From NCBI RefSeq assembly GCF_008189285.1, contig NZ_CP043315.1:270001-302000 (forward strand): 32,000 nt of DNA, in the 5' to 3' direction. Below the pieces are notes generated by a model, which was not told the origin of the DNA, did not search any database, and saw nothing but the letters and a program-made list of their open reading frames with translations. Source of the DNA: Candidatus Saccharimonadota bacterium. Lineage in GTDB: Bacteria; Pseudomonadota; Alphaproteobacteria; CAJXXZ01; 1604HC. Positions 4,702 to 20,676 of this stretch are shown one piece after another. A program made the position numbers and the translations under genes. Positions within the stretch are counted from its first letter, which is position 1. Every line of letters starts with the position of its first letter.

Positions 4702-4905
4702 TAGAAATATTCAAGCAAATAAAGCGCAATTATTTTGAATTTTTAAATAGATAGTAAAATCAAAATAGGTAGTAAATATCAACAAAAAGAGATTTATTAT
4801 ATGATTTTCAATCAAAAAATTTTTGAAGCAAACTTTGATAATTCAGAAAAAATCAATATATTATGCTATAAATCACTACAAATTATAGTTTTGTGAAATA
4901 TTAAA

Positions 4906-5179
4906 AGATTTTAGATTTTAGATTTTAGATTTTAGATTTTAGATTTTAGATTTTAGATTTTAGATTTTAGATTTTAGATTTTAGATTTTAGATTTTAGAT
5001 TTTAGATTTTAGATTTTAGATTTTAGATTTTAGATTTTAGATTTTTAGATTTTAGATTTTAGATTTTAGATTTTAGATTTTAGATTTTAGATTTTAGATT
5101 TTAGATTTTAGATTTTAGATTTTAGATTTTAGATTTTAGATTTTAGATTTTAGATTTTAGATTTTAGATTTTAGATTTT
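4906..5179. repeat. heptanucleotide microsatellite (AGATTTT)x39, with one unit carrying an extra T
   Basis: Counted directly. There are 20 units from 4906, and the 20th (5039..5046) is AGATTTTT. A further 19 units run from 5047 to 5179. No other substitution is visible. Confidence 0.95.
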
Positions 5180-6012
5180 AAAAGGTCATTGATCTAATAA
5201 TCTATACTATAGCTTCATGATTTAATCATCATAACATTTATTGTATAGTTTATTACATAATTGAGTTGTATTACAGAGTTATAAATTACATTGTAAAAAA
5301 TATTTAAGAATATTGTTTTGTTAAATTTGTGTTCGTATTGATAGTGATTTTACAAACAAAAAATCTAAACATTTAAGAGCATTGCTATTAAAATTATTTG
5401 AAAATTGCATAGCAAATTTCTGTTTAATTATATTTATACTGACTATTTATTTAAAAACTCAAAACTGTGTATAAATTCTACTTATTCTGTTGGTATTTGC
5501 TATTTATTGTACATTTAAAACATTATTTATTTAAATTTATTTAAAAATTAAAAAATCATATTTAATTGGCAGTTATTTATAGCATTTGAGTAAATAAATA
5601 TTCTTTTGCATATAAGTTTATCATTTCAGGAAAAATGAAAATGAATTTTAAGTAGATCAAAAGAGAATCAATTAAGAAAGATAAAAATGAATTTTGCAGG
5701 ATTAGTTTGCAGAATTGTTATATAAAATCAAATTAATTGAATGTCACATAAAATCAAAATTGACTGAAATATTGCATAAAATGTATAAAATCATAAATAT
5801 TTCTTGAAAGCATTTTGACGAAAGAATGAAATATTTCTAGAATAAATTAAAAGATGGCTAATAGCAAAAGAAAAAATAACAAGAGTTGTAAATTCAATGA
5901 AATTACCAAATTGTTTTCAACAATATGCAAATTTTTAACAGTATTTGCTTGTAAAATTTAATAAATTGAATGGAAGTTTGTATGAAATGAATTTGTAATT
6001 TTCATAGATTTA

Positions 6013-6110
6013 AAAAAGCTGAACAACCTTGCAAAAAAAATCAATAATTTTTTATAAATATTAAATAAGATCATAAATATCTCAAACTTCCATACCTTTA
6101 ATCTTAGAGG
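6013..6110. repeat. copy A of a ~97-bp imperfect direct repeat in the rplT-ychF spacer
   Basis: AAAAAGCTGAACAACCTTGCAAAAAAAATCAATAATTTTTTATAAATATTAAATAAGATCATAAATATCTCAAAC... aligns by eye with 6188..6284 at roughly four matches in every five positions. Confidence 0.7.
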
Positions 6111-6187
6111 CATTTGCTTGCAATGTTAAATGAGCCTTATGCAGATTGAGTAAAATTGCAGTAAATCAATAATTTTTATAAATTTCG

Positions 6188-6284
6188 AAAAAGCTGAATA
6201 ACTTTGAAAAGAAATCAATAATTTTTATAAATGTTAAATAAAATCATAAATATTTCAAATCTAAACAGCTTTAATTTTGTAGAT
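6188..6284. repeat. copy B of the ~97-bp imperfect direct repeat
   Basis: AAAAAGCTGAATAACTTTGAAAAGAAATCAATAATTTTTATAAATGTTAAATAAAATCATAAATATTTCAAATC... lies 175 bp downstream of copy A. A partial third copy (ATAAAATCATAAATATTTC) is at 5786..5804. Confidence 0.7.
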
Positions 6285-6501
6285 GATTTCTTATAATATT
6301 AAATGCAATTATAATTTTTTATAAAATTTCAATGAGATATCAATAATTTTCATAAATTGTAGAGAGAAAAATTGGCAAAAAAATCAATAATTCATAAATT
6401 GCAGAGAGAGTGCAAAGTAATTTTTATGGGTGAAAAGTATTAATTTCAGAATAAAGGTAATTTGATTTGATCAATGAGAGTATAATGAGTATAATGCTTT
6501 T

Positions 6502-7584: not shown

Positions 7585-8259
7585 TTTATTAGGCTAAATT
7601 TATTCATAGTTCAATCAATTTAAATTTCATTAGGGCGCTTGTTAATTTCAATAGCATTTGATCTTCCAATCTTTTTGCTTATGTGAATTTCGATTAACAA
7701 TTCAACTGTATAAAATTTGCTTAAAATATCTCGTTAAAATCTAAAATTATATTTATTATATTCAATATATCATTAAAATCTCAATAATACCTATTTGCCA
7801 ATTCTTTAGCTTATGTAAATTTAGCTTAAATTCTTTCATATATTTGGATATATATTATCCTGTGTTTTTATCTTTATTATGAATTTGTTAATTTCATTCT
7901 GATTATTTTTATTTTTCGATCAGTTATTAGAATTAATAAACGCAGAAAATTATCTAAGTTTTGTAGATTTGCATAATTAATCGCTTTGTTTTTTATATGA
8001 CATTTAATTTTCAACTCATTAGAATTATTTATTCAATCTTTATGTTTTTTGCATTATCTTTCTTGATTGTTGCTAAATTATAATTCTATTTTATATGTGT
8101 ATCAAGCAATGCATTGCTAAATTGCATAATTTTTTAATACAATTCATCATTTATTGTAATATTTATTGTAAATTAATTTATATTGAATGCAATTTTACTT
8201 ATTATATACAGTTAAATCAAATTGAGTTTAAATTAGTTTTAAATAAAATTTATTAGCTT

Positions 8260-8303
8260 TTTCTTTACAAACACTTGGCAAAATTAATCAAAATGGAGGA
8301 CGA
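8260..8303 (+). promoter_or_regulatory. conserved 5' module TTTCTTTACAA-N9-AAAATTAA-...GGAGG upstream of the 905-aa gene
   Basis: The same motif, with the same 9-nt internal spacing and the same distance to the ATG (44, 43 and 46 nt), is found upstream of the 1033-aa and 543-aa genes. Confidence 0.4.
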
Positions 8304-11021
8304 ATGAAATATAAAAATAAATTTTTATTGTCATTAGTAGTGCTATTAAGCGCGGATTGTATGAAAGGTAATCTTGAAAATAATCATATTGCCAGAGATT
8401 TAATGGAACAACTTTCAAAGACACAAGCTATGAATGCAATGAAAGCACATCAAGAAACAATTGATTCTATTCTTTTCATTAACCAAGGAGATTATTACTT
8501 AATTCAAGATGGTCATATGTACAAAGTTGACGATAGTTTGAAAAGTTCTATTTATGCAGATGCTACAGTAGCAAAAATTTCAGATGAAGTAAAAGCAAAA
8601 ATTACTGCAGGAGCAGTGGTTAACAGCGATAAAGAAGTAATTGATTCTGTTTTTGAATTTGTTAACAAAAAATCAACAGATGCTAAAATGAATTTATCTA
8701 ATTTAATGAACACTTTGTTAGAAGATGGGCTTTCTTCTGAAGATGATTTATTTGTTAGAGTTATTTCTGGATCTGAATTAAGCAACAGTGATGCTAATGC
8801 ATCCATTGATAGCTTAAACGATATTGATGAAGAGCATAAAAGTGAATTAAAAACATCTGTGTTGGTATCTGGAAATATTGATTATAAAAATAAGCATGAA
8901 GCATTGATTAGTGCGCAAAAAGAATTAGCACAATTTGCTGAAGACAACAGTGTTGCATTAAAAACTGCAATGAATAAAGCTGAAGCTGCTAAAGAAGAAT
9001 TAATTGAAAATGCAAGCAAAATCAGCGCTACATCTCATGAGATAAAATTAGCAAAACTTTATGCAGAGCAATTGAATATTATGAAAACTTATAAAGAGAA
9101 GATTGAATCTGATCAACGTAAGCTTAATTCTAAAGAAAATTCTGTGTTAGAGCTTAAAAGTGGTTCAGAGCGTGAAGCTGAAGAATTTAATCAAATTATG
9201 AGAAATGCTGTAGAAGCTGTAAGTATGATCAAAGCAATGCATAATGAATTAGATTTCTGGAAAACAAATGTTGGAGGAAGTGGAAGCGATAACCAAACAG
9301 CTAGAATGACTAGTTTTTACAACAAACTAAATGCAATGACAAACTTAATAGAGGTGTCAGGAATAGTTTATGCTAAAAATAATAGTGGTGAGTTAAATAG
9401 TTATGATCAATACAAAACAATGATTGAAGATCAAGACTTTATTAGCAAGATGAGCTCGCTTTCCATTGAAGGAGATAGCAATCCTATTTCAAAAGCTATA
9501 TATAATTTGTTGCAAATGACCAATTCATTAATAAAGTACCATGCTGCTTTCAACAGATCTCAATCTTTAGAATTTTCAGATTCAATAATTGAATTAAGCA
9601 GAGATTATTATAGAACTAATAGCAATGGAGACAAAGAGATTGAAATTGGAACTTTTGAATACATTGGTATCATGAGAGATGCGCAAAATAAAGATTACAC
9701 TTCCCAAGAAAATGATGCAGAGCTTATAGATCATGTAGAAAAAGCAATAAAAGTAGGGGTATCTTACGAAGAATTATTGCCTAGCGATGCTCTTGTTAAA
9801 GTTGATGCTGCATATAGACATATCCTAGATTCTGATAACACAGCAAAAGAAATAGAACTTGATGCAAAATTGATTGAACAATTAATGTTTGATGCAAATC
9901 AAGTTGTTGTAATAATAGATAATGCAGAAGTAATAATTGATTACAGCGATCTAATGATTACAAATGATGAGAAAGAAGAATTTTCGTATTTCCAGTATTC
10001 ATATGAAAGCGATGATGAAAAAGTAGAGCTTGATGAGAAAATTAGAGCAATTTTGATTAAAAAGCTTAAAGAGCATGCTTTAAGATCGACAGAAATCATG
10101 AAAATTGAAGCAAAAGAGTCTTGGGTTTCTATGAATGATACTATGGGAACACTAAATCAAGCTATTAACAATAACCTTGAAAAATCTCAAGATGATGATG
10201 GAAAATATACAAATATAGCCATGTATTACATTGCTGAACTTTCTGGGTTTGATGGTTCTAATTATGAAGAATTAAATAATGCTGTTAAAGATCATTTGAC
10301 AAGTCTTGGCTATGATGGGATAAACAAACCACAAGACATAGGAATCAGATGGAATTTTATACTTGGTGATCTTTACAATGAAGACTTATTGAATGTTTAT
10401 AAAAATGCTGTAAATGTTAAAAAAGCTTTAGCTGCATTAAAAATTGAGAAAGAAAAAGAAGAGCCTAGCGCTGAATTGAAACAAGATATCGAAGGTAAAA
10501 AAATAGAAGCAGAAAAATATAGCAATGCATTGCATGATTTTGTATATACTCCTGAGCCAGGAAATGGAAATGATCTAAATATTCCTGAAATCTTATGGAG
10601 TGGAGAAGGCGCCGCTTCTAGCTCAGTTAGCATATCATCAGGAAATAGAACAAGAGCAGGTTCTGCTAGATCAATATTTGATGAATATGTAGGGTATGGA
10701 AGATTCCAAGAAGGAATTGACAATTCTCTAAAAACATTAACAAATCCATTCGCAGGCGCAGCTTATTCTGCAGAGAAAACTGTACATACAAACTCTTTGG
10801 ATGCTCTTAATGCTGCAATTACAGAATTGGAAGCAAAGTTTAATGAAATAAATATTGATTCTGATGCATACAAATTTGAACTAGAGAAAAGCGCTGAATT
10901 GCATGCAGAAATAGATGTTCTTAATGTTGAAGTTAGTGCAAAATATCAAGATCAAGAAGATAAAGTTGCTGGATTGCAATCAGAATTAGATGCAATTCGT
11001 GAACAAATTAAAAATGCATAA
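8304..11021 (+). CDS. hypothetical large acidic, coiled-coil-rich secreted or surface protein
   Basis: A 905-aa uninterrupted ORF in a very AT-rich background, with GGAGG 4 nt upstream of the ATG. The N-terminus MKYKNKFLLSLVVLLSADC looks like a signal peptide. I recognise no family motif. Confidence 0.8.
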   Translation: MKYKNKFLLSLVVLLSADCMKGNLENNHIARDLMEQLSKTQAMNAMKAHQETIDSILFINQGDYYLIQDGHMYKVDDSLKSSIYADATVAKISDEVKAKITAGAVVNSDKEVIDSVFEFVNKKSTDAKMNLSNLMNTLLEDGLSSEDDLFVRVISGSELSNSDANASIDSLNDIDEEHKSELKTSVLVSGNIDYKNKHEALISAQKELAQFAEDNSVALKTAMNKAEAAKEELIENASKISATSHEIKLAKLYAEQLNIMKTYKEKIESDQRKLNSKENSVLELKSGSEREAEEFNQIMRNAVEAVSMIKAMHNELDFWKTNVGGSGSDNQTARMTSFYNKLNAMTNLIEVSGIVYAKNNSGELNSYDQYKTMIEDQDFISKMSSLSIEGDSNPISKAIYNLLQMTNSLIKYHAAFNRSQSLEFSDSIIELSRDYYRTNSNGDKEIEIGTFEYIGIMRDAQNKDYTSQENDAELIDHVEKAIKVGVSYEELLPSDALVKVDAAYRHILDSDNTAKEIELDAKLIEQLMFDANQVVVIIDNAEVIIDYSDLMITNDEKEEFSYFQYSYESDDEKVELDEKIRAILIKKLKEHALRSTEIMKIEAKESWVSMNDTMGTLNQAINNNLEKSQDDDGKYTNIAMYYIAELSGFDGSNYEELNNAVKDHLTSLGYDGINKPQDIGIRWNFILGDLYNEDLLNVYKNAVNVKKALAALKIEKEKEEPSAELKQDIEGKKIEAEKYSNALHDFVYTPEPGNGNDLNIPEILWSGEGAASSSVSISSGNRTRAGSARSIFDEYVGYGRFQEGIDNSLKTLTNPFAGAAYSAEKTVHTNSLDALNAAITELEAKFNEINIDSDAYKFELEKSAELHAEIDVLNVEVSAKYQDQEDKVAGLQSELDAIREQIKNA

Positions 11022-11173
11022 TTTAGCAATCTAATTGTTTATATTAAGTATTGGTAATATTAATAATGAGCGTTAGAAATCTAACATTTATATAAAATTA
11101 CAAAAACACCTTAAAGAGCTTGTAGAAATGCAGTGCTTATGCAATGAATTGAAAAGCTATAAAGTATTATCAT

Positions 11174-11216
11174 TTTCTTTGCAAGTATTATTTAAAATTA
11201 AATCAAAGGAATGGTA
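11174..11216 (+). promoter_or_regulatory. conserved 5' module TTTCTTTGCAA-N9-AAAATTAA-...AAGGA upstream of the IQ-motif protein gene
   Basis: See the alignment in the findings. The similarity to the 543-aa gene continues into the first 26 nt of coding sequence (ATGAAATATATCT[T/A]TTTAAGCATTG). Confidence 0.4.
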
Positions 11217-14200
11217 ATGAAATATATCTTTTTAAGCATTGTTGTCTTATTAATCTCAAACTCTCATATTGTGGCAGATGAAATAAATGATGATGAAATA
11301 TCACAAAATAAAATTGTAGAAAAAATCTATAAAAGAAAAATAAAACCAACTATTTCTAAAAAGAACAGTATAAAAAAAAGAAAATCAAGAAAATCTAAAC
11401 TTAAAGCCACAAAAAGAAGCAGAATAACTGGATCTAAAAGGCGAAAATTACCCGCAAAAAGAAGAAAGTCCTCTGCATCAAAATTGACCAAAAGATCATC
11501 AAGAAAAAGAGTTAGATTAAGTAGGGCAAAATATCCAATTGCAAAAAAACTTAATAAGATTAACTCTGTAGCTGTAAAGATTTCATATGAAGATATATAT
11601 AAAAATGAAATTAGAAAATTACAAGAAAAAGAAAATGAAATTAGAAATAAATTAATTGCTAGTAAAAATAATCATATGCTAGAAATAAAACTTAACAAAG
11701 AATTGACTAGCCTGCATTTGAAAACGATGCATTACAAATTATTGTTAAACAAACCCAATGATATATCAATGCAAATAAAGCAATTATCAAGCATGCAAAT
11801 GGATATTAGAAACAAATTTGACAAAGAAAAAGATCAAGCACAGAAAGATAAGCTGAGAAAAGAATTGCATGCCATTAGTGTGAATATAAATCATTATAAA
11901 TCACTATTAAATAGAAATAGATCTATGAAATCTGATTCATTATCAAGAAGAGATATGTCCGTAGAAGTTAATTTCAGGCCAAAAATTAACGAACCAAAAA
12001 GCACTGAGGGCGCAACTATATTGATGACAAAAGAACAAACTATATCACGTCCTGAAGAAATTGCAATTATTGCCCCAAAAGATTCTGTTGCATTAATAGA
12101 ATCATCAAGTAAAATTGAAAATCCTGCTAGAGACTCAGTTGTTTTAAAAAATAGCGAGCAAACAATTGTTAATCCAAAGAAATTAGTTGAGCTTGAAAGC
12201 GCATCATCAACAATAACAAATAAAGAAGATAAAAAAGAAGCGATCACCTTAGTGGAAAAAGAAGAGTATATAAGTAGAGATGAGCATAAAAAAAAGACTG
12301 TTGAATTATCTGGACATATGCATGAGATTAAATCAGAACACACAAAGCCTAATTTGATTGAGAAGGGGTCGCAGTTAGCAATTCCTCAATTTAAGGAAGA
12401 GGTAAAACTATTTGCGAATGATAAATCAATTACATCTCCAATAAGGGAAGAGCAGAAAAAAATAATTGAAGAAGAAAAACAACAACAATCAGCAACAAAG
12501 ATTCAAGCTTTATTTAGAGGAAGAAGTGCTAGAAAAGCAACTGAAGTAAAGAAAGTTGCTGAAGCAGAAGAGAAAAAGCTAGAAGAAGCAAGATTGAGTG
12601 AAGAAGAAAATAGAAAATTAATTAAATCTGAAGAGAAAATAGATAGAGAAGAAGGAGAAAAAAAGATTCGACTTTTATTGGAAAAATTAGTTGAAATAAA
12701 AGATATAAGAGCTACAACAGACAAAAGAAAAGAAAGGAATAAAAAATCAGAAGAAGAAAAAGAAACAAGAAAAGAAGTTGAAATAGTAGAGAGAAAGGAA
12801 ATAGAAGAACTAAAAGCTAAAGAAGAAAGAGCAAGAAAAGAAGTAGAAGCAAGATTAGATACAGAAGAAAAAGCAGCAACAAAGATTCAAGCTTTATTTA
12901 GAGGAAGAAGTGTAAGAAAAGCAACTGAAAAAACAACCCCAAAAGATATTGAAAGGAATAGCTCATCTGCCCCTTTAACTCCAAGAAAATTAAGTTTTGA
13001 TTCCTCAGACGATAGATCTTCAAGAGCTGAATCAGTCGATCATACACCTGGGCATGAAGATAAAAGAATATCAAGAGGATCAGATAGATCAACGTTTTCT
13101 TCAGATTCAACTTCTTCAAAAGGTTCAAAAAGATCATTAACAAAAGAGGAAATTGCAAAAAAAAATCAAAGCGCGAAGGTTGAAATAAACAATAATATAG
13201 AAGGGCAAAGAAGAAATGAAGCAATAACAAGAAAAAAGAACAAAGATATAAATAATAGAAAAAAAATAAAAATAAAACAAAACAAAATTAGAGCTAATAA
13301 TAGAATTAAACAAAATAAATTAAGAAAAGAAAAAGATCTGAGATTGTTCGGAAGAAAAATAGCAGAAGAAACTAATAGAAAACAAAAAGAATTAGAGAAA
13401 ATTAGAAAAGATAAACTAGATATTAAGCGGCTCAGTGAAGAAGAAAGTCGCACAAGGTCTGAATTGCAAAAAGAAGAAAGTTCTGGAAGATTAATGATAA
13501 AAGATTCTAAAGATAAAAATACATGGAAAGAAATTGCATTAAGTGAGAGTGATAATAACACTGAAGGACATGAAAATGATGATGAAAGCATGATTTCTGA
13601 AGAAATAACTCAAATTGAAAAAACTCTTGATCAGTTGAATGGAGAAAAGAAATCTATAGAAAATGGCATAAGAGAGTTTAAAAATAAAGTTGTGTTAAAA
13701 AATAAAGAAAAAGCAGAGTTAGCAAAAGATTTAAAAAAATTAAATGAATTGAAGAAAAAATCAGAAGAAAAATCTAATGAAAAAACACTTCCATTTGGAA
13801 GAACAAATCTTCAAAAGCTTAATGAAGCAGTTAAAAAACATGGAGGGTCAAATGCTGTAATTTTAATTGCAAGCATTGGAGAAAAAATTACAAGTTTAGG
13901 AAACGAAATAGTAGAATTAGAAAAAAACAAAAAAAAGCATGAAGAGAAATTAATTGCAGTGGAGAATGAAATTAAATCTAAACAAAAAGAATTGCAAACA
14001 AAGAAAAGCTTGCTTGAAAGAATAAAAAATGCCTTTAAAGCAGCGAGATCAAAAGTTATCCCTAGTAAAAGCAAAAAAAATAACAATCGAAATGCAGGAT
14101 CATCTGTAATTCCTTATTATGATGAAAGTCGTGAGGTATATTTATTGGATCCACAAATAACTCCTTACACATCTGAAAGAAGAAAAAATAATGACACAAA

Positions 14201-14318
14201 ATCTAGATCACCTTCTGGAAGTAGGTCAAATTCATTAAACTCTCCTTCTAAGTCTTCTTCTGCCAAAAATAAAACTCCACCTAAGTCAAAATATGCACAT
14301 ACAATATATTCTTATTAA
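11217..14318 (+). CDS. hypothetical secreted, hyper-charged protein with two IQ motifs
   Basis: A long ORF (1035 aa from the ATG at 11211). I prefer the ATG at 11217 because MKYIFLSIVVLLIS... then aligns with the paralogous MKYIYLSIAALLIS... and sits 6 nt after AAGGA. The order is signal peptide, a K/R/S polybasic tract, coiled-coil-like segments, and IQxxxRGxxxR twice. Confidence 0.85.
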   Translation: MKYIFLSIVVLLISNSHIVADEINDDEISQNKIVEKIYKRKIKPTISKKNSIKKRKSRKSKLKATKRSRITGSKRRKLPAKRRKSSASKLTKRSSRKRVRLSRAKYPIAKKLNKINSVAVKISYEDIYKNEIRKLQEKENEIRNKLIASKNNHMLEIKLNKELTSLHLKTMHYKLLLNKPNDISMQIKQLSSMQMDIRNKFDKEKDQAQKDKLRKELHAISVNINHYKSLLNRNRSMKSDSLSRRDMSVEVNFRPKINEPKSTEGATILMTKEQTISRPEEIAIIAPKDSVALIESSSKIENPARDSVVLKNSEQTIVNPKKLVELESASSTITNKEDKKEAITLVEKEEYISRDEHKKKTVELSGHMHEIKSEHTKPNLIEKGSQLAIPQFKEEVKLFANDKSITSPIREEQKKIIEEEKQQQSATKIQALFRGRSARKATEVKKVAEAEEKKLEEARLSEEENRKLIKSEEKIDREEGEKKIRLLLEKLVEIKDIRATTDKRKERNKKSEEEKETRKEVEIVERKEIEELKAKEERARKEVEARLDTEEKAATKIQALFRGRSVRKATEKTTPKDIERNSSSAPLTPRKLSFDSSDDRSSRAESVDHTPGHEDKRISRGSDRSTFSSDSTSSKGSKRSLTKEEIAKKNQSAKVEINNNIEGQRRNEAITRKKNKDINNRKKIKIKQNKIRANNRIKQNKLRKEKDLRLFGRKIAEETNRKQKELEKIRKDKLDIKRLSEEESRTRSELQKEESSGRLMIKDSKDKNTWKEIALSESDNNTEGHENDDESMISEEITQIEKTLDQLNGEKKSIENGIREFKNKVVLKNKEKAELAKDLKKLNELKKKSEEKSNEKTLPFGRTNLQKLNEAVKKHGGSNAVILIASIGEKITSLGNEIVELEKNKKKHEEKLIAVENEIKSKQKELQTKKSLLERIKNAFKAARSKVIPSKSKKNNNRNAGSSVIPYYDESREVYLLDPQITPYTSERRKNNDTKSRSPSGSRSNSLNSPSKSSSAKNKTPPKSKYAHTIYSY
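12501..12533 (+). other. IQ motif 1 (IQALFRGRSAR) within the 1033-aa protein
   Basis: An exact fit to the IQxxxRGxxxR consensus. The context SATKIQALFRGRSARKATE resembles neuromodulin AATKIQASFRGHITRKK. Confidence 0.7.
12885..12917 (+). other. IQ motif 2 (IQALFRGRSVR) within the 1033-aa protein
   Basis: An exact fit to IQxxxRGxxxR in the context AATKIQALFRGRSVRKATE. The DNA patch 12876..12929 is 52/54 identical to 12492..12545. Confidence 0.7.
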
Positions 14319-14411
14319 CTTGATTAATTATTATCCGTGATGAGGGAGAATAAAGTGAAAATTCCAAGGACAGCTCTTTTGTTTATTAGTTAAGCAAACT
14401 ATAATGTGCGC

Positions 14412-14996
14412 ATGAAGATATTCATAATTTTTGCTTTATGTATGTCTATTTCTGGGAAAAGTCTTTCTCAAGAATCGCATATTGTTTTTCTTGGTAAAAT
14501 TTTAGATTACCATTCGGATCATGATGAAATAAACTTGATTAATCAAAGAAATATTTCTCTGAATAAACTGAGGTTAGATTTTCCGCTTTTTGATTTATTT
14601 ATTTCTCAGAAAAATAAAACTTCTTTTGCAAAATGGTTTTATCATTTTTGCTCTTTGTCTATTATGAATTCGAGTAGAAAAAAACAAATGCAAGAAATTT
14701 ATAGCCTTATTAATATTTCTGTTGATGGATTTATTAATGGGGTCATGCAATTAAACTCTATTGATTGTAGCACTTTGTCAGATAATGCAAAAAATTGGAT
14801 TGATAGAGCGCAATTATGGATTAAAGCTTACAAAAAATTCGAAAAATCATATCAAGATAAATCTGGAAAGTTATATCAAAATAATAATCACGATATAACT
14901 AGAAAAATAAGTGAAAAGTCTTTTAAAAATAAATTTGAACAAAAAACAAATGAAAAGCTTGATGAGAAAAATTCTAAGAAAGTGGATGAAATATGA
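14412..14996 (+). CDS. hypothetical exported or membrane-anchored protein (possible reduced HemX/Mic60-like)
   Basis: The ORF has a hydrophobic N-terminus, MKIFIIFALCMSISGKSLSQ. Its stop overlaps the next gene's start (ATGA). The C-terminal ...LSDNAKNWIDRAQLWIKAYKKFEK resembles the end of mitofilin/HemX-type domains, but the match is weak. I prefer the ATG at 14412 over the track's GTG at 14406. Confidence 0.6.
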   Translation: MKIFIIFALCMSISGKSLSQESHIVFLGKILDYHSDHDEINLINQRNISLNKLRLDFPLFDLFISQKNKTSFAKWFYHFCSLSIMNSSRKKQMQEIYSLINISVDGFINGVMQLNSIDCSTLSDNAKNWIDRAQLWIKAYKKFEKSYQDKSGKLYQNNNHDITRKISEKSFKNKFEQKTNEKLDEKNSKKVDEI

Positions 14997-15733: not shown

Positions 15734-15859
15734 TAAGTCTAAATGCTAATCATGCTGTACAAAATATGCGAAATATGAAAAAATAATTTATTAGAAATCT
15801 TGTTATAAGATTTACTTGTAGGCTATTTTGTGTTCTAATTTACTTATTAAGGAGATTTT

Positions 15860-18406: not shown

Positions 18407-18582
18407 TGTAATTCGCAAATAAATTTTCTTTACAAGTGATTTATGAAAATAAATATTAACATGGAAAATTCATTGTATAGTATAAATTTGCATAAATAAA
18501 TATTTCTATGAAAATGATTGGTGAAAATATCAATGTAAAAAATAGCATTGTTTTATGTTGCTTGCTTTTAGCGTTTAGTATT

Positions 18583-18656
18583 TATATTTCTATCGATTTC
18601 ATTTGGCTGCAGCTTTATTTTATATTTCTATCGATTTCATTTGAATGCAGTTTTAT
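18583..18656. repeat. tandem duplication of a ~36-38-bp unit (TATATTTCTATCGATTTCATTTGRMTGCAGYTTTAT)
   Basis: The copies at 18583..18618 and 18621..18656 differ at 3 positions. They lie in the convergent intergenic region between dprA and the 543-aa gene. Confidence 0.8.
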
Positions 18657-18781
18657 GTTAGATAAATATTTCTGTTAAAGATTTATGATGAGCTTAATCT
18701 CTCAATCTACTTCCATTTTTACAATGTTTTTTAAATTATTTCTTTTTTCTAAGCTCATTTCACGCTTCAGTAAGTTTATTA

Positions 18782-20413
18782 CTAGATGTCATTTTCATCA
18801 GAATCTTTATAATTACCAGACATCATACGTTGCCTAATCAGTGCCTTTCTCATTTTTTCTTCAAATTCGCTTTTTGTTTCTTTCGCTTTCTTTAATTTGA
18901 AGTTTCCTTTTCTTATTTCTGCGAACAAATCCGCTCTGCTATCTTGATCTTCACTTAAAGGCATTGAAGCTTTAGACAAGCCTTTTATTCCTTCTTTAGG
19001 AAGTGCTGGGGCATCAGGAATTGCTCCAGTTTTAGGCGCAGGAGGAGGTGTTGGAATTGCTCCAGTTTCAGATGCAGGAGTTTCGTCAAAAGCTATTTCT
19101 CCCATTGATAATTTATCAGCTCTTTTTTCTGCAGCAAGATCAAGAGCTTTTCTTTTTTCTCTGCCTTTTTCTTCAAGCTCTATCAGAAAACTCGCTTTAG
19201 TTGAATTTCCAGATGTTGCTTTAGACAAGCCTTTTATCCCTTCTTTAGGAAGTGCTGGGGCATCAGGAATTGCTCCAGTTTTAGGCGCAGGAGGAGGTGT
19301 TGGAATTGCTCCAGTTTTAGGCACAAGAGGAGGTGTTGGAATTGCTCCAGTTTCAGATGCAGGAGTTTCGTCAAAAGCTATTTCCCCCATTGATAATTTA
19401 TCAGCTCTTTTTTCTGCAGCAAGATCAAGAGCTTTTCTTTTTTCTCTGCCTTTTTCTTCAAGCTCTATCAGAAAACTCGCTTTAGTTGAATTTCCAGATG
19501 TTGCTTTAGACAAGCCTTTTATCCCTTCTTTAGGAAGTGCTGGGGCATCAGGAATTGCTCCAGTTTCAGATACAGAAGTTTGAAGTGCTGCATTAGTTGA
19601 ATTGTCTCCTGCTATTTTAGGAATTGAAAAATAATCATCATCTACATTAGTTGAATTGTCTGCTGTTTTTTTAGGTGAATTCAACGAAGGTGCATTTATG
19701 CTTCCTTTTGCTGATCTTTCAATTTCGTTCATCTCTTGAGAAGCATTTTGTTCGATTGCACTTCTCTTGCTATGTTCTTCTATTAAAAATGCTGAGGAAT
19801 TTTCTAGAATATTTTTAGCTTTATTAGTTGCAAATTGAGTGCTTTTAATTTTTGATTCAACAACAAATAATCTATTTTCCAATTCCACTTTTTCTTTTGC
19901 TGTTAATTTTGTGTTGTTTGTCAATTTTGTTGTTAACGCCATTTTCTCTGCATTCATGCTTCTTAGATCAGTCATATTTTTGTCATAATCTTTAGATAAT
20001 TGGTCATAATAAGAAACTGTTGCGCTTTTTGTTTTTGCAGATGATGCAGATGATCTTGAAGTTGGTCTGAAGCTTCTTCTTGCAATTCGTCTTCCAGATC
20101 TAGTTGCGCTTCTTCTAAATACAGGCTTGCGAGATCTTGAAATTCTTCTTTTAGCAGCTCTTCTTGATTTGGAAGTAACTTTCCTTCTTTTAGCAGCGGA
20201 TTTTCTTCTTGATTTAGCAGCGGATTTTCTTCTTGATTTGGAAGTAACTTTCTTTCTAGATTTTCTTTTTGTTTTTTTAAACGATTTATCATCGCTTTTT
20301 TTTATTTCAGTGTGAACAGGCTTTCCCTCTACAATACTCATGTTAACTTCTTTTGCATCAGCATATGTATTAGAAATCAATAAAGCGGCAATGCTTAAAT
20401 AGATATATTTCAT
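18782..20413 (-). CDS. hypothetical secreted protein: signal peptide, polybasic tract, coiled coil, proline-rich tandem repeats, C-terminal WH2/connector/acidic (WCA-like) tail
   Basis: A 543-aa ORF with AAGGAG 7 nt upstream of the ATG. The N-terminus MKYIYLSIAALLISNTYA|DA looks like a Sec signal peptide. The C-terminus ADLFAEIRKGNFKLKKAKETKSEFEEKMRKALIRQRMMSGNYKDSDENDI carries the WCA-like tail. Confidence 0.9.
   Translation of the reverse strand: MKYIYLSIAALLISNTYADAKEVNMSIVEGKPVHTEIKKSDDKSFKKTKRKSRKKVTSKSRRKSAAKSRRKSAAKRRKVTSKSRRAAKRRISRSRKPVFRRSATRSGRRIARRSFRPTSRSSASSAKTKSATVSYYDQLSKDYDKNMTDLRSMNAEKMALTTKLTNNTKLTAKEKVELENRLFVVESKIKSTQFATNKAKNILENSSAFLIEEHSKRSAIEQNASQEMNEIERSAKGSINAPSLNSPKKTADNSTNVDDDYFSIPKIAGDNSTNAALQTSVSETGAIPDAPALPKEGIKGLSKATSGNSTKASFLIELEEKGREKRKALDLAAEKRADKLSMGEIAFDETPASETGAIPTPPLVPKTGAIPTPPPAPKTGAIPDAPALPKEGIKGLSKATSGNSTKASFLIELEEKGREKRKALDLAAEKRADKLSMGEIAFDETPASETGAIPTPPPAPKTGAIPDAPALPKEGIKGLSKASMPLSEDQDSRADLFAEIRKGNFKLKKAKETKSEFEEKMRKALIRQRMMSGNYKDSDENDI
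18887..18934 (-). other. candidate WH2 (G-actin-binding) motif ADLFAEIRKGNFKLKK
   Basis: It matches the WH2 pattern LLxxIxxGxxLKK(V/A) with one extra residue before LKK. Compare WAVE (RSVLLEAIRKGIQLRKV) and N-WASP (ALLDQIRQGIQLKSV). Confidence 0.65.
18968..19567 (-). repeat. near-identical in-frame tandem repeats (249 bp, 285 bp, and a partial third of ~60 bp) encoding proline-rich and helical modules
   Basis: Units begin at 18971, 19220 and 19505. Units 1 and 2 differ by 2 substitutions plus a 36-bp indel that adds one more TGAIPTPPxxPK sub-repeat. Confidence 0.9.
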
Positions 20414-20459
20414 TACTATTCTCCTTTTATTTTAATTTTAAATATGATTTGCAAAGAAA
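20414..20459 (-). promoter_or_regulatory. conserved 5' module (reverse complement: TTTCTTTGCAA-N9-AAAATTAA-...AAGGAG) upstream of the 543-aa gene
   Basis: This is the third occurrence of the motif at the same distance from the start codon. Confidence 0.4.
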
Positions 20460-20676
20460 TTGCTAATTGATAGGAGAAATTGCTTATACTTAACTTATCA
20501 TGATTTAATTCTACATAAATTTATTTATCAAACATCGCTTTATTTCAATGATTTGTTTGTTTTAAAAAGAATTTAGAAAGAAAAGAGCAAATGATTTTTG
20601 AAGAATATTTGAAGTGATTTGCTTGTAAAATTTACAGAATAATGAGATCTTTAACACAAAGGAACTCAATTTTCTC

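Follow-up and report, generated by a model that had tools for sequence, protein, structure and literature searches.

A position-fixed and apparently constrained element upstream of three neighbouring signal-peptide genes in the reduced endosymbiont Candidatus Cytomitobacter indipagum

In Legionella, response regulators of the wHTH (winged helix-turn-helix) type, namely PmrA and CpxR, exert direct control over about 40 and about 30 effector genes, respectively, via shared upstream elements, which sit immediately before the -10 and have served to predict new effectors (PMC6989116, PMC2701608). Here we describe an element of this familiar kind, with a new motif and in a new organism: a 36-nt conserved sequence that precedes three genes for proteins with a signal peptide in a 32,000-nt stretch of DNA (positions 270,001 to 302,000 of the forward strand of contig NZ_CP043315.1; hereafter the window), taken from the genome of Candidatus (Ca.) Cytomitobacter indipagum, a single contig of 628,024 bp. 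This bacterium is a Holosporaceae (Holosporales) endosymbiont of the diplonemid Diplonema aggregatum (PMC5845003). George et al. counted 106 signal-peptide genes in its genome and left their roles open, and the published genome description does not mention promoters or sigma factors (10.1101/719211). The element is real and non-random and is apparently constrained, being in part a legacy of duplication and in part a selected site. Judging from the sequence, we lean, on balance, towards reading its three copies as one selected promoter-region element with a fixed orientation and distance to the ATG, which serves three neighbouring species-specific signal-peptide genes and would depend on a factor that switches them together. 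Most gene regulation is usually considered lost from highly reduced endosymbiont genomes, and species-specific secreted proteins are the least understood part of their biology. A position-fixed, constrained element on three signal-peptide genes, two of which encode eukaryote-like IQ and WH2 motifs, would offer a testable entry point.

The core of the element, TTTCTTTRCAA-N9-AAAATTAA (28 nt, consisting of block 1, a spacer and block 2), has three exact matches in the window. Frequent occurrence in shuffled sequence, which a first-pass annotation of this DNA had named as a ground for giving up the motif, was not seen: from dinucleotide-preserving shuffles, 0.13 matches are expected when up to two mismatches are allowed and 1.12 when up to three are, compared to four observed at both thresholds. 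The conserved sequence moreover extends beyond the motif as first noted, as a 5' extension adds 8 nt (ATTAKC-NN). The resulting 36-nt form, ATTAKC-NN-TTTCTTTRCAA-N9-AAAATTAA, fits each of the three copies without mismatch and had zero matches in the shuffles, even at up to three mismatches. Copy 1 (8252..8287, plus strand, 28-nt core at 8260-8287; ATTAGC-TT-TTTCTTTACAA-ACACTTGGC-AAAATTAA) precedes a 905-aa ORFan (8304..11021, plus strand; 100% identical to FZC35_01125) with the N-terminal signal-peptide-like sequence MKYKNKFLLSLVVLLSADC. Copy 2 (11166..11201, plus strand, core at 11174-11201; ATTATC-AT-TTTCTTTGCAA-GTATTATTT-AAAATTAA) precedes the gene of a 1033-aa IQ-motif protein (IQ gene; 11217..14318, plus strand), and copy 3 (20432..20467, minus strand, core at 20432-20459; ATTAGC-AA-TTTCTTTGCAA-ATCATATTT-AAAATTAA) that of a 543-aa protein (WCA or WH2 gene; 18782..20413, minus strand; 100% identical to FZC35_01160, hypothetical or WH2 domain-containing). 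All copies are on the coding strand of their gene. The motif starts 44 nt (905-aa), 43 nt (IQ) and 46 nt (WCA) before the ATGs at 8304, 11217 and 20413, respectively, and ends 16, 15 and 18 nt before them. The upstream sequences, the identical 9-nt spacer and the distance of 43-46 nt that had been reported for these genes were thus reproduced exactly. The same applies to the absence of the motif upstream of the housekeeping, outer membrane protein (OMP) and 89-aa genes, as no copy with up to three mismatches was found upstream of any further gene in the window.

A degenerate fourth copy (18425..18452, plus strand; TTTCTTTACAA-GTGATTTAT-GAAAATAA), in which block 1 is perfect and block 2 agrees at 6 of 8 positions, lacks the ATTAKC extension and a Shine-Dalgarno (SD) sequence and is not followed by a gene. 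For block 1 alone, four occurrences compare to 0.48 expected, and with the three true copies set aside the fourth by itself is not significant; it is possibly a relic, of uncertain membership.

The IQ and WCA proteins are paralogous over about 110 N-terminal residues, which take in the signal peptide together with a K/R-rich region (33% identity, E=1e-7). At the DNA level their genes share a patch with an alignment length of 71 nt (68 nt in IQ, 71 nt in WCA; 87% identity, E=2.7e-10), which was also recovered independently as an inverted repeat. The corresponding 5' cassettes, at 11174..11241 (plus strand) for IQ and 20389..20459 (minus strand) for WCA, contain the motif, the leader and the first eight codons (MKYIFLSI and MKYIYLSI, respectively). 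In the identity profile the edges of this patch are sharp: its 5' end coincides with the start of the motif and its 3' end with codon 8, with no DNA similarity between the two genes upstream of the ATTAKC extension and identity at background level downstream of the patch, where the remainder of the homologous N-terminus is 33-39% identical at the protein level. For conserved residues within codons 2-8 the two genes use one and the same codon in 6 of 6 cases, the rarer ATC and AGC among them, compared to 22 of 42 further on (Fisher p=0.034). Differences within the patch are concentrated in spacer and leader rather than in the blocks or codons 1-8. IQ and WCA, and these two genes only, thereby display a paralogous 5' cassette, with the upstream region and signal-peptide start kept and the mature parts different. 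As inverted repeats (11166-11287 and 20343-20467), their cassettes flank a 9.1-kb segment with IQ, two ORFans, trcR, plsY, dprA and WCA.

For the 905-aa gene the picture is different. The protein has no similarity to the IQ or WCA proteins, and the start of its coding sequence has in common with theirs just ATGAAATAT, a 9-mer that occurs eight times in the window and of which the further sites at 5826 and 28185 are not gene starts. Compared to the IQ upstream region, this gene agrees at 6 of 8 positions in ATTAKC-NN, at 10 of 11 in block 1 and at all 8 in block 2, but at only 2 of 9 in the spacer. The earlier proposal of a promoter-plus-signal-peptide cassette on all three genes, possibly left by duplication, consequently holds for IQ and WCA, with their N-terminal paralogy and shared patch, but not for the 905-aa gene, which has the motif and this 9-mer only. 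Retention of the blocks in that gene, together with a diverged spacer of fixed length, points to a constrained bipartite protein-DNA site and favours a promoter or operator, and to the extent that sequence comparison can tell, this pattern indicates selection and not just a relic of duplication.

Such a passive relic, being the footprint of duplication or short-tract gene conversion around an ordinary constitutive promoter without dedicated regulator or co-regulation, would fit the demonstrable paralogy of the IQ and WCA N-termini, the recent internal duplication in both genes (285-nt repeats with 97% identity in WCA and 73-nt repeats with 89% identity in IQ), the location of all copies within 12 kb and the 5' cassettes being inverted repeats able to undergo gene conversion. 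It would also agree with a profile search of the shared N-terminal module against 1.84 billion representatives, which recovered IQ and WCA alone, hence no large family. Neutral decay, however, would not have spared the blocks in the 905-aa gene, which without any coding similarity keeps 18 of their 19 positions next to the diverged spacer. Nor do the IQ/WCA differences, clustered in spacer and leader, resemble a recent conversion tract, and the 5' edge falls sharply at the motif. We therefore consider a passive relic unlikely, though by no means negligible.

Block 2 holds a -10-like hexamer, yAAAAT, 18-21 nt before the ATG (TAAAAT in IQ and WCA, CAAAAT in the 905-aa copy), which keeps the two critical -10 positions, the second (A) and the sixth (T). 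For comparison, the perfect TATAAT boxes of pheS and trx in the window are found 20 and 17 nt before the ATG, respectively. The 3' block would in this way supply the -10, with candidates at 8279-8284 (905-aa), 11193-11198 (IQ) and 20440-20435 (WCA, minus strand). Transcription is predicted to start at the A of TCA/ATA, around 8290-8291, 11205 and 20428, respectively, which is 2-4 nt before the SD sequences GGAGG (8295-8299), AAGGA (11206-11210) and AAGGAG (20426-20421) and would result in leaders of 12-15 nt. Because these SD sequences are good ones, the start site is not expected much further downstream. At the normal -35 position (16-18 nt) the hexamers disagree (TCATTT, GCAATT and GCTTTT), and TTGCAA/TTTACA is merely 8 nt from yAAAAT. 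In a sigma-70 consensus scan none of the three copies carried a -35/-10 pair, in line with the misfit to sigma-70 observed before, and sigma-70-like matches in the region were below chance overall (57 found compared to 72.8 expected).

Elsewhere in the window, the region upstream of trcR (15734-15859; in the sampled regions of two relatives, L119 8882-8998 and L120 8779-8875) contains the word AAGATTTACTTG, conserved in three Cytomitobacter genomes and followed seventeen nt further by TTCAAT or TCTAAT. The arrangement resembles a normally spaced promoter of the sigma-70 type, so that standard spacing of this type exists in the genus Cytomitobacter. At 14394-14414 (TATAATGTGCGCATGAAG), a perfect TATAAT ends 6 nt before the likely ATG of a signal-peptide open reading frame (ORF; 14406/14412-14996), which suggests a leaderless or near-leaderless transcript.

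With an ordinary -10 and no -35 hexamer at 16-18 nt, the promoter would be recognized upstream by a specific factor, for which the conserved 5' part ATTAKC-NN-TTTCTTTRCAA, spanning about -39 to -21 relative to the predicted start, may be the docking site. A winged-helix activator of the response-regulator type, binding two 7-nt half-sites 11 nt apart (TTAKCWW and TTTRCAA), is one candidate, and a non-housekeeping sigma is another. In each of the three copies, 8 nt separate the end of the second half-site from yAAAAT, a position that suits a response-regulator site provided that the -10 is correctly assigned. At PhoB-regulon promoters of E. coli, the Pho box consists of two 7-bp direct repeats, separated by 4 bp, which take the place of the -35 about 10 bp upstream of the -10. 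The element described here likewise has 7 nt (TTAKCWW), 4 nt (TTTC) and 7 nt (TTTRCAA), ending 8 nt before a -10-like hexamer without -35, but its half-sites are only weakly alike (3, 4 and 6 of 7 matches) and its sequence is unrelated to CTGTCAT. A tandem-repeat form of the PmrA site was reportedly described as well, by Zusman et al. in 2007. We put forward this half-site geometry, similar to that of Pho and PmrA sites, as a hypothesis.

CtrA belongs to the winged-helix response-regulator class too, and its box in Alphaproteobacteria is TTAA-N7-TTAAC. The 11-nt half-site period is shared with the site found here, TTAK-N7-TTTRC, but the individual copies, TTAG-N7-TTTAC (905-aa), TTAT-N7-TTTGC (IQ) and TTAG-N7-TTTGC (WCA), agree with the box at 6-7 of 9 positions. 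A CtrA box was rejected for the element, and its canonical (exact) form was found nowhere in the window. The window does encode TrcR (Pfam PF06242, 'Transcriptional cell cycle regulator TrcR'), and trcR is named as a putative target of CtrA in a preprint on Orientia (10.64898/2025.12.09.693123). On inspection we discarded an operator of the MerR type, or an extended palindrome, in a 20-bp spacer, as only the central TTGCAA is palindromic and this not in the 905-aa copy. The consensus sequences of sigma-32, sigma-28 and extracytoplasmic function (ECF) sigma factors were compared by eye and none fits.

A promoter of the sigma-54 type, dependent on an enhancer-binding protein, would have ATTAKC-NN as its -24 and TTTRCA as its -12 element and a start within AAAATTAA. 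The two conserved 5' pieces indeed have exactly the spacing of -24/-12 elements, and in comparison to the consensus TGGCAC-N5-TTGCA (WCA: TAGCAA-N5-TTGCA) 9 of 11 positions agree in WCA, 8 in IQ and 7 in the 905-aa copy. The near-invariant GG, however, is absent from all three copies (AG, AT and AG) and GC is missing in the 905-aa copy (AC). Such a promoter would also give no account of block 2, which is the best-conserved part, and the presence of sigma-54 with an AAA+ activator in a 628-kb genome is unlikely. We regard a sigma-54-type promoter as highly improbable.

If transcription started upstream of the motif, the element would be part of the 5' untranslated region (5'-UTR) and could act as RNA, either by pairing of UUUCUUU with the SD sequence (AAAGGA, AAAGGAG or GGAGG) in an anti-SD or fourU-like translational switch, or by binding of its U-rich and A-rich blocks to S1, Hfq or a similar protein. 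Minimum-energy folds of short constructs do pair UUUCUUU with the SD sequence in 3 of 3 genes, but the helices are worth just -0.5, -4.3 and -2.2 kcal/mol (z = +1.40, -0.45 and +0.49 compared to shuffles), and longer constructs fold worse or no better than shuffles (z = +1.43, +1.05 and -0.04). On these energies, which do no better than those of shuffles, an RNA hairpin sequestering the SD sequence was rejected. Nucleotide conservation that runs into the first 26 nt of the coding sequence would suit a constraint at the RNA level, and a sigma-70-like pair, TTGAGT-16-TAAAAT, ends 11 nt before the 905-aa copy. Across the three genes, however, no consistent upstream promoter is seen, sigma-70-like matches are below chance in number, and a fixed 9-nt spacer of free sequence is typical of a protein-DNA site. 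Rfam gave no match for the 5' regions at gathering score or E<=1. We assign the two RNA variants together a low probability. Among the options initially raised for the motif (operator, alternative-sigma promoter or 5'-UTR element), a promoter or operator is favoured by the block/spacer pattern, and the 5'-UTR option is weakened by the helix energies. The element does not fully match a sigma-70 or sigma-54 promoter, a CtrA box or a known RNA.

Several observations weigh against one factor-dependent promoter element as the explanation. CAAAAT in the 905-aa copy is without the first T of the -10 hexamer, the predicted leaders are short, and next to the weak likeness of the half-sites, self-similarity of the element is only marginally highest at offset 11 (0.45 compared to 0.42 at offset 6). 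The fourth copy sits at a gene-less site, and all three sites are found within 12 kb. As there are three sites, at most 12 kb apart, common descent and function are not fully separable. As to its origin, the IQ/WCA element would have been inherited within the 68-71-nt cassette (promoter, leader and first eight codons), alongside the duplicated N-terminal module, and the 905-aa gene would have retained the functional blocks only.

As a consequence of recognition by a common factor, the three genes would be switched together. A more tentative proposal, of which we are rather doubtful, is a small regulon dedicated to secreted proteins directed at the host (IQ/calmodulin-binding-like, WH2/actin-binding-like and coiled-coil), with the motif as its mark and a retained response regulator or non-housekeeping sigma as its switch. 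If true, an extremely reduced protist endosymbiont would still time its effectors transcriptionally, and further effectors could be traced across the genome by means of the motif, just as the Legionella 'ceg' genes were by the PmrA element.

By analogy, the PmrA/CpxR system of Legionella and Coxiella may be considered the closest functional counterpart. In both cases a short conserved element occupies a fixed position just before the -10 (here a putative one) of otherwise unrelated secreted genes in an intracellular bacterium. The sequences differ, however, only three copies are present here, which are all clustered, and the regulator is known only for PmrA/CpxR. Moreover, the effectors of that system carry a type IV C-terminal signal, whereas secretion of the proteins described here would, in view of their signal peptides, be Sec-dependent. 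Conserved promoter-plus-signal-peptide 5' cassettes are also a feature of variable surface-protein families, such as Mycoplasma vlp/vsp and the Borrelia lipoprotein paralogues. IQ and WCA resemble these in their near-identical upstream region and signal-peptide start, their different mature parts and their evolution by internal repeats. Unlike those families, they have two members and no visible device for phase variation (homopolymer or invertible promoter), and the third, 905-aa gene has the DNA motif without a common signal peptide.

Behind its signal peptide and K/R-rich region, the IQ protein has two IQ calmodulin-binding motifs (Pfam). Both motifs (IQALFRGRSxRKATE) are inside the 73-nt repeat (12473-12545 and 12857-12929, 384 nt apart), so that the IQ unit was duplicated within the gene. 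The WCA protein consists of a signal peptide, a K/R-rich region, proline-rich repeats and a WH2 motif, a layout that resembles an actin nucleation-promoting factor; its Pfam matches, to the WH2 motif and an FH1-like proline-rich region, are weak and sub-threshold. The 285-nt duplication in this minus-strand gene is a tandem one (18969-19578) and is accompanied by three copies of a 76-nt unit encoding proline-rich 'TGAIPDAPALPKEGIKGLSKA' segments, which indicates a very recent internal expansion. No Pfam domain was found in the 905-aa protein, and homologue searches of 5.8 billion clustered proteins returned for this protein and for WCA the query itself alone.

As no homologues of WCA, the 905-aa protein or the shared N-terminus were recovered, orthologous upstream regions for footprinting do not exist in these collections. 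Four relatives were sampled by 21-kb regions anchored on DprA (84 kb in total), derived from C. primus (OX638200.1), the two ENA assemblies ERZ25333217 and ERZ25333236 of Cytomitobacter and a related 558-kb metagenome-assembled genome (MAG). These 84 kb contained neither the motif at up to three mismatches nor any of the three genes. A scan of genome contigs with the 28-nt pattern gave at least 118 single matches in unrelated genomes, among which many Bacteroidota and Clostridia MAGs, and we took these as chance. The matches in a Holosporaceae MAG and a Rickettsiales MAG, which lacked both a start codon at the distance normal for the motif and any additional likeness to the cassette, were taken as chance as well. 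In the metagenome collection the 36-nt pattern had 0 exact matches, and the 28-nt pattern followed by N14-19 and ATGAAA retrieved one unrelated activated-sludge sequence, recovered twice.

Comparison with the relatives also sheds light on the location of WCA. In the relatives dprA is followed by topA, behind which the related MAG (L122) has two ORFs and then glyQ. In C. indipagum, dprA is followed by a 375-nt gene-less stretch (18407-18781), which holds the fourth copy and separates the convergent dprA and WCA, placing WCA at a synteny or rearrangement breakpoint. This stretch contains a 38-nt tandem direct repeat (18581-18618 and 18619-18656, 92% identity). The orientation of the glyQS-exo block relative to trcR-plsY-dprA in C. 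indipagum and L122 differs from that in L119-L121, from which it follows that inversions have occurred here within the genus. Finally, replication probably originates in the region 4702-6501 of the window. Cumulative GC skew is lowest near 4 kb, with minus-strand genes to the left and plus-strand genes to the right, and the region itself is an ORF-free stretch of 1.8 kb with 19% GC and repeated ATAAAATC words around 5720-5800.

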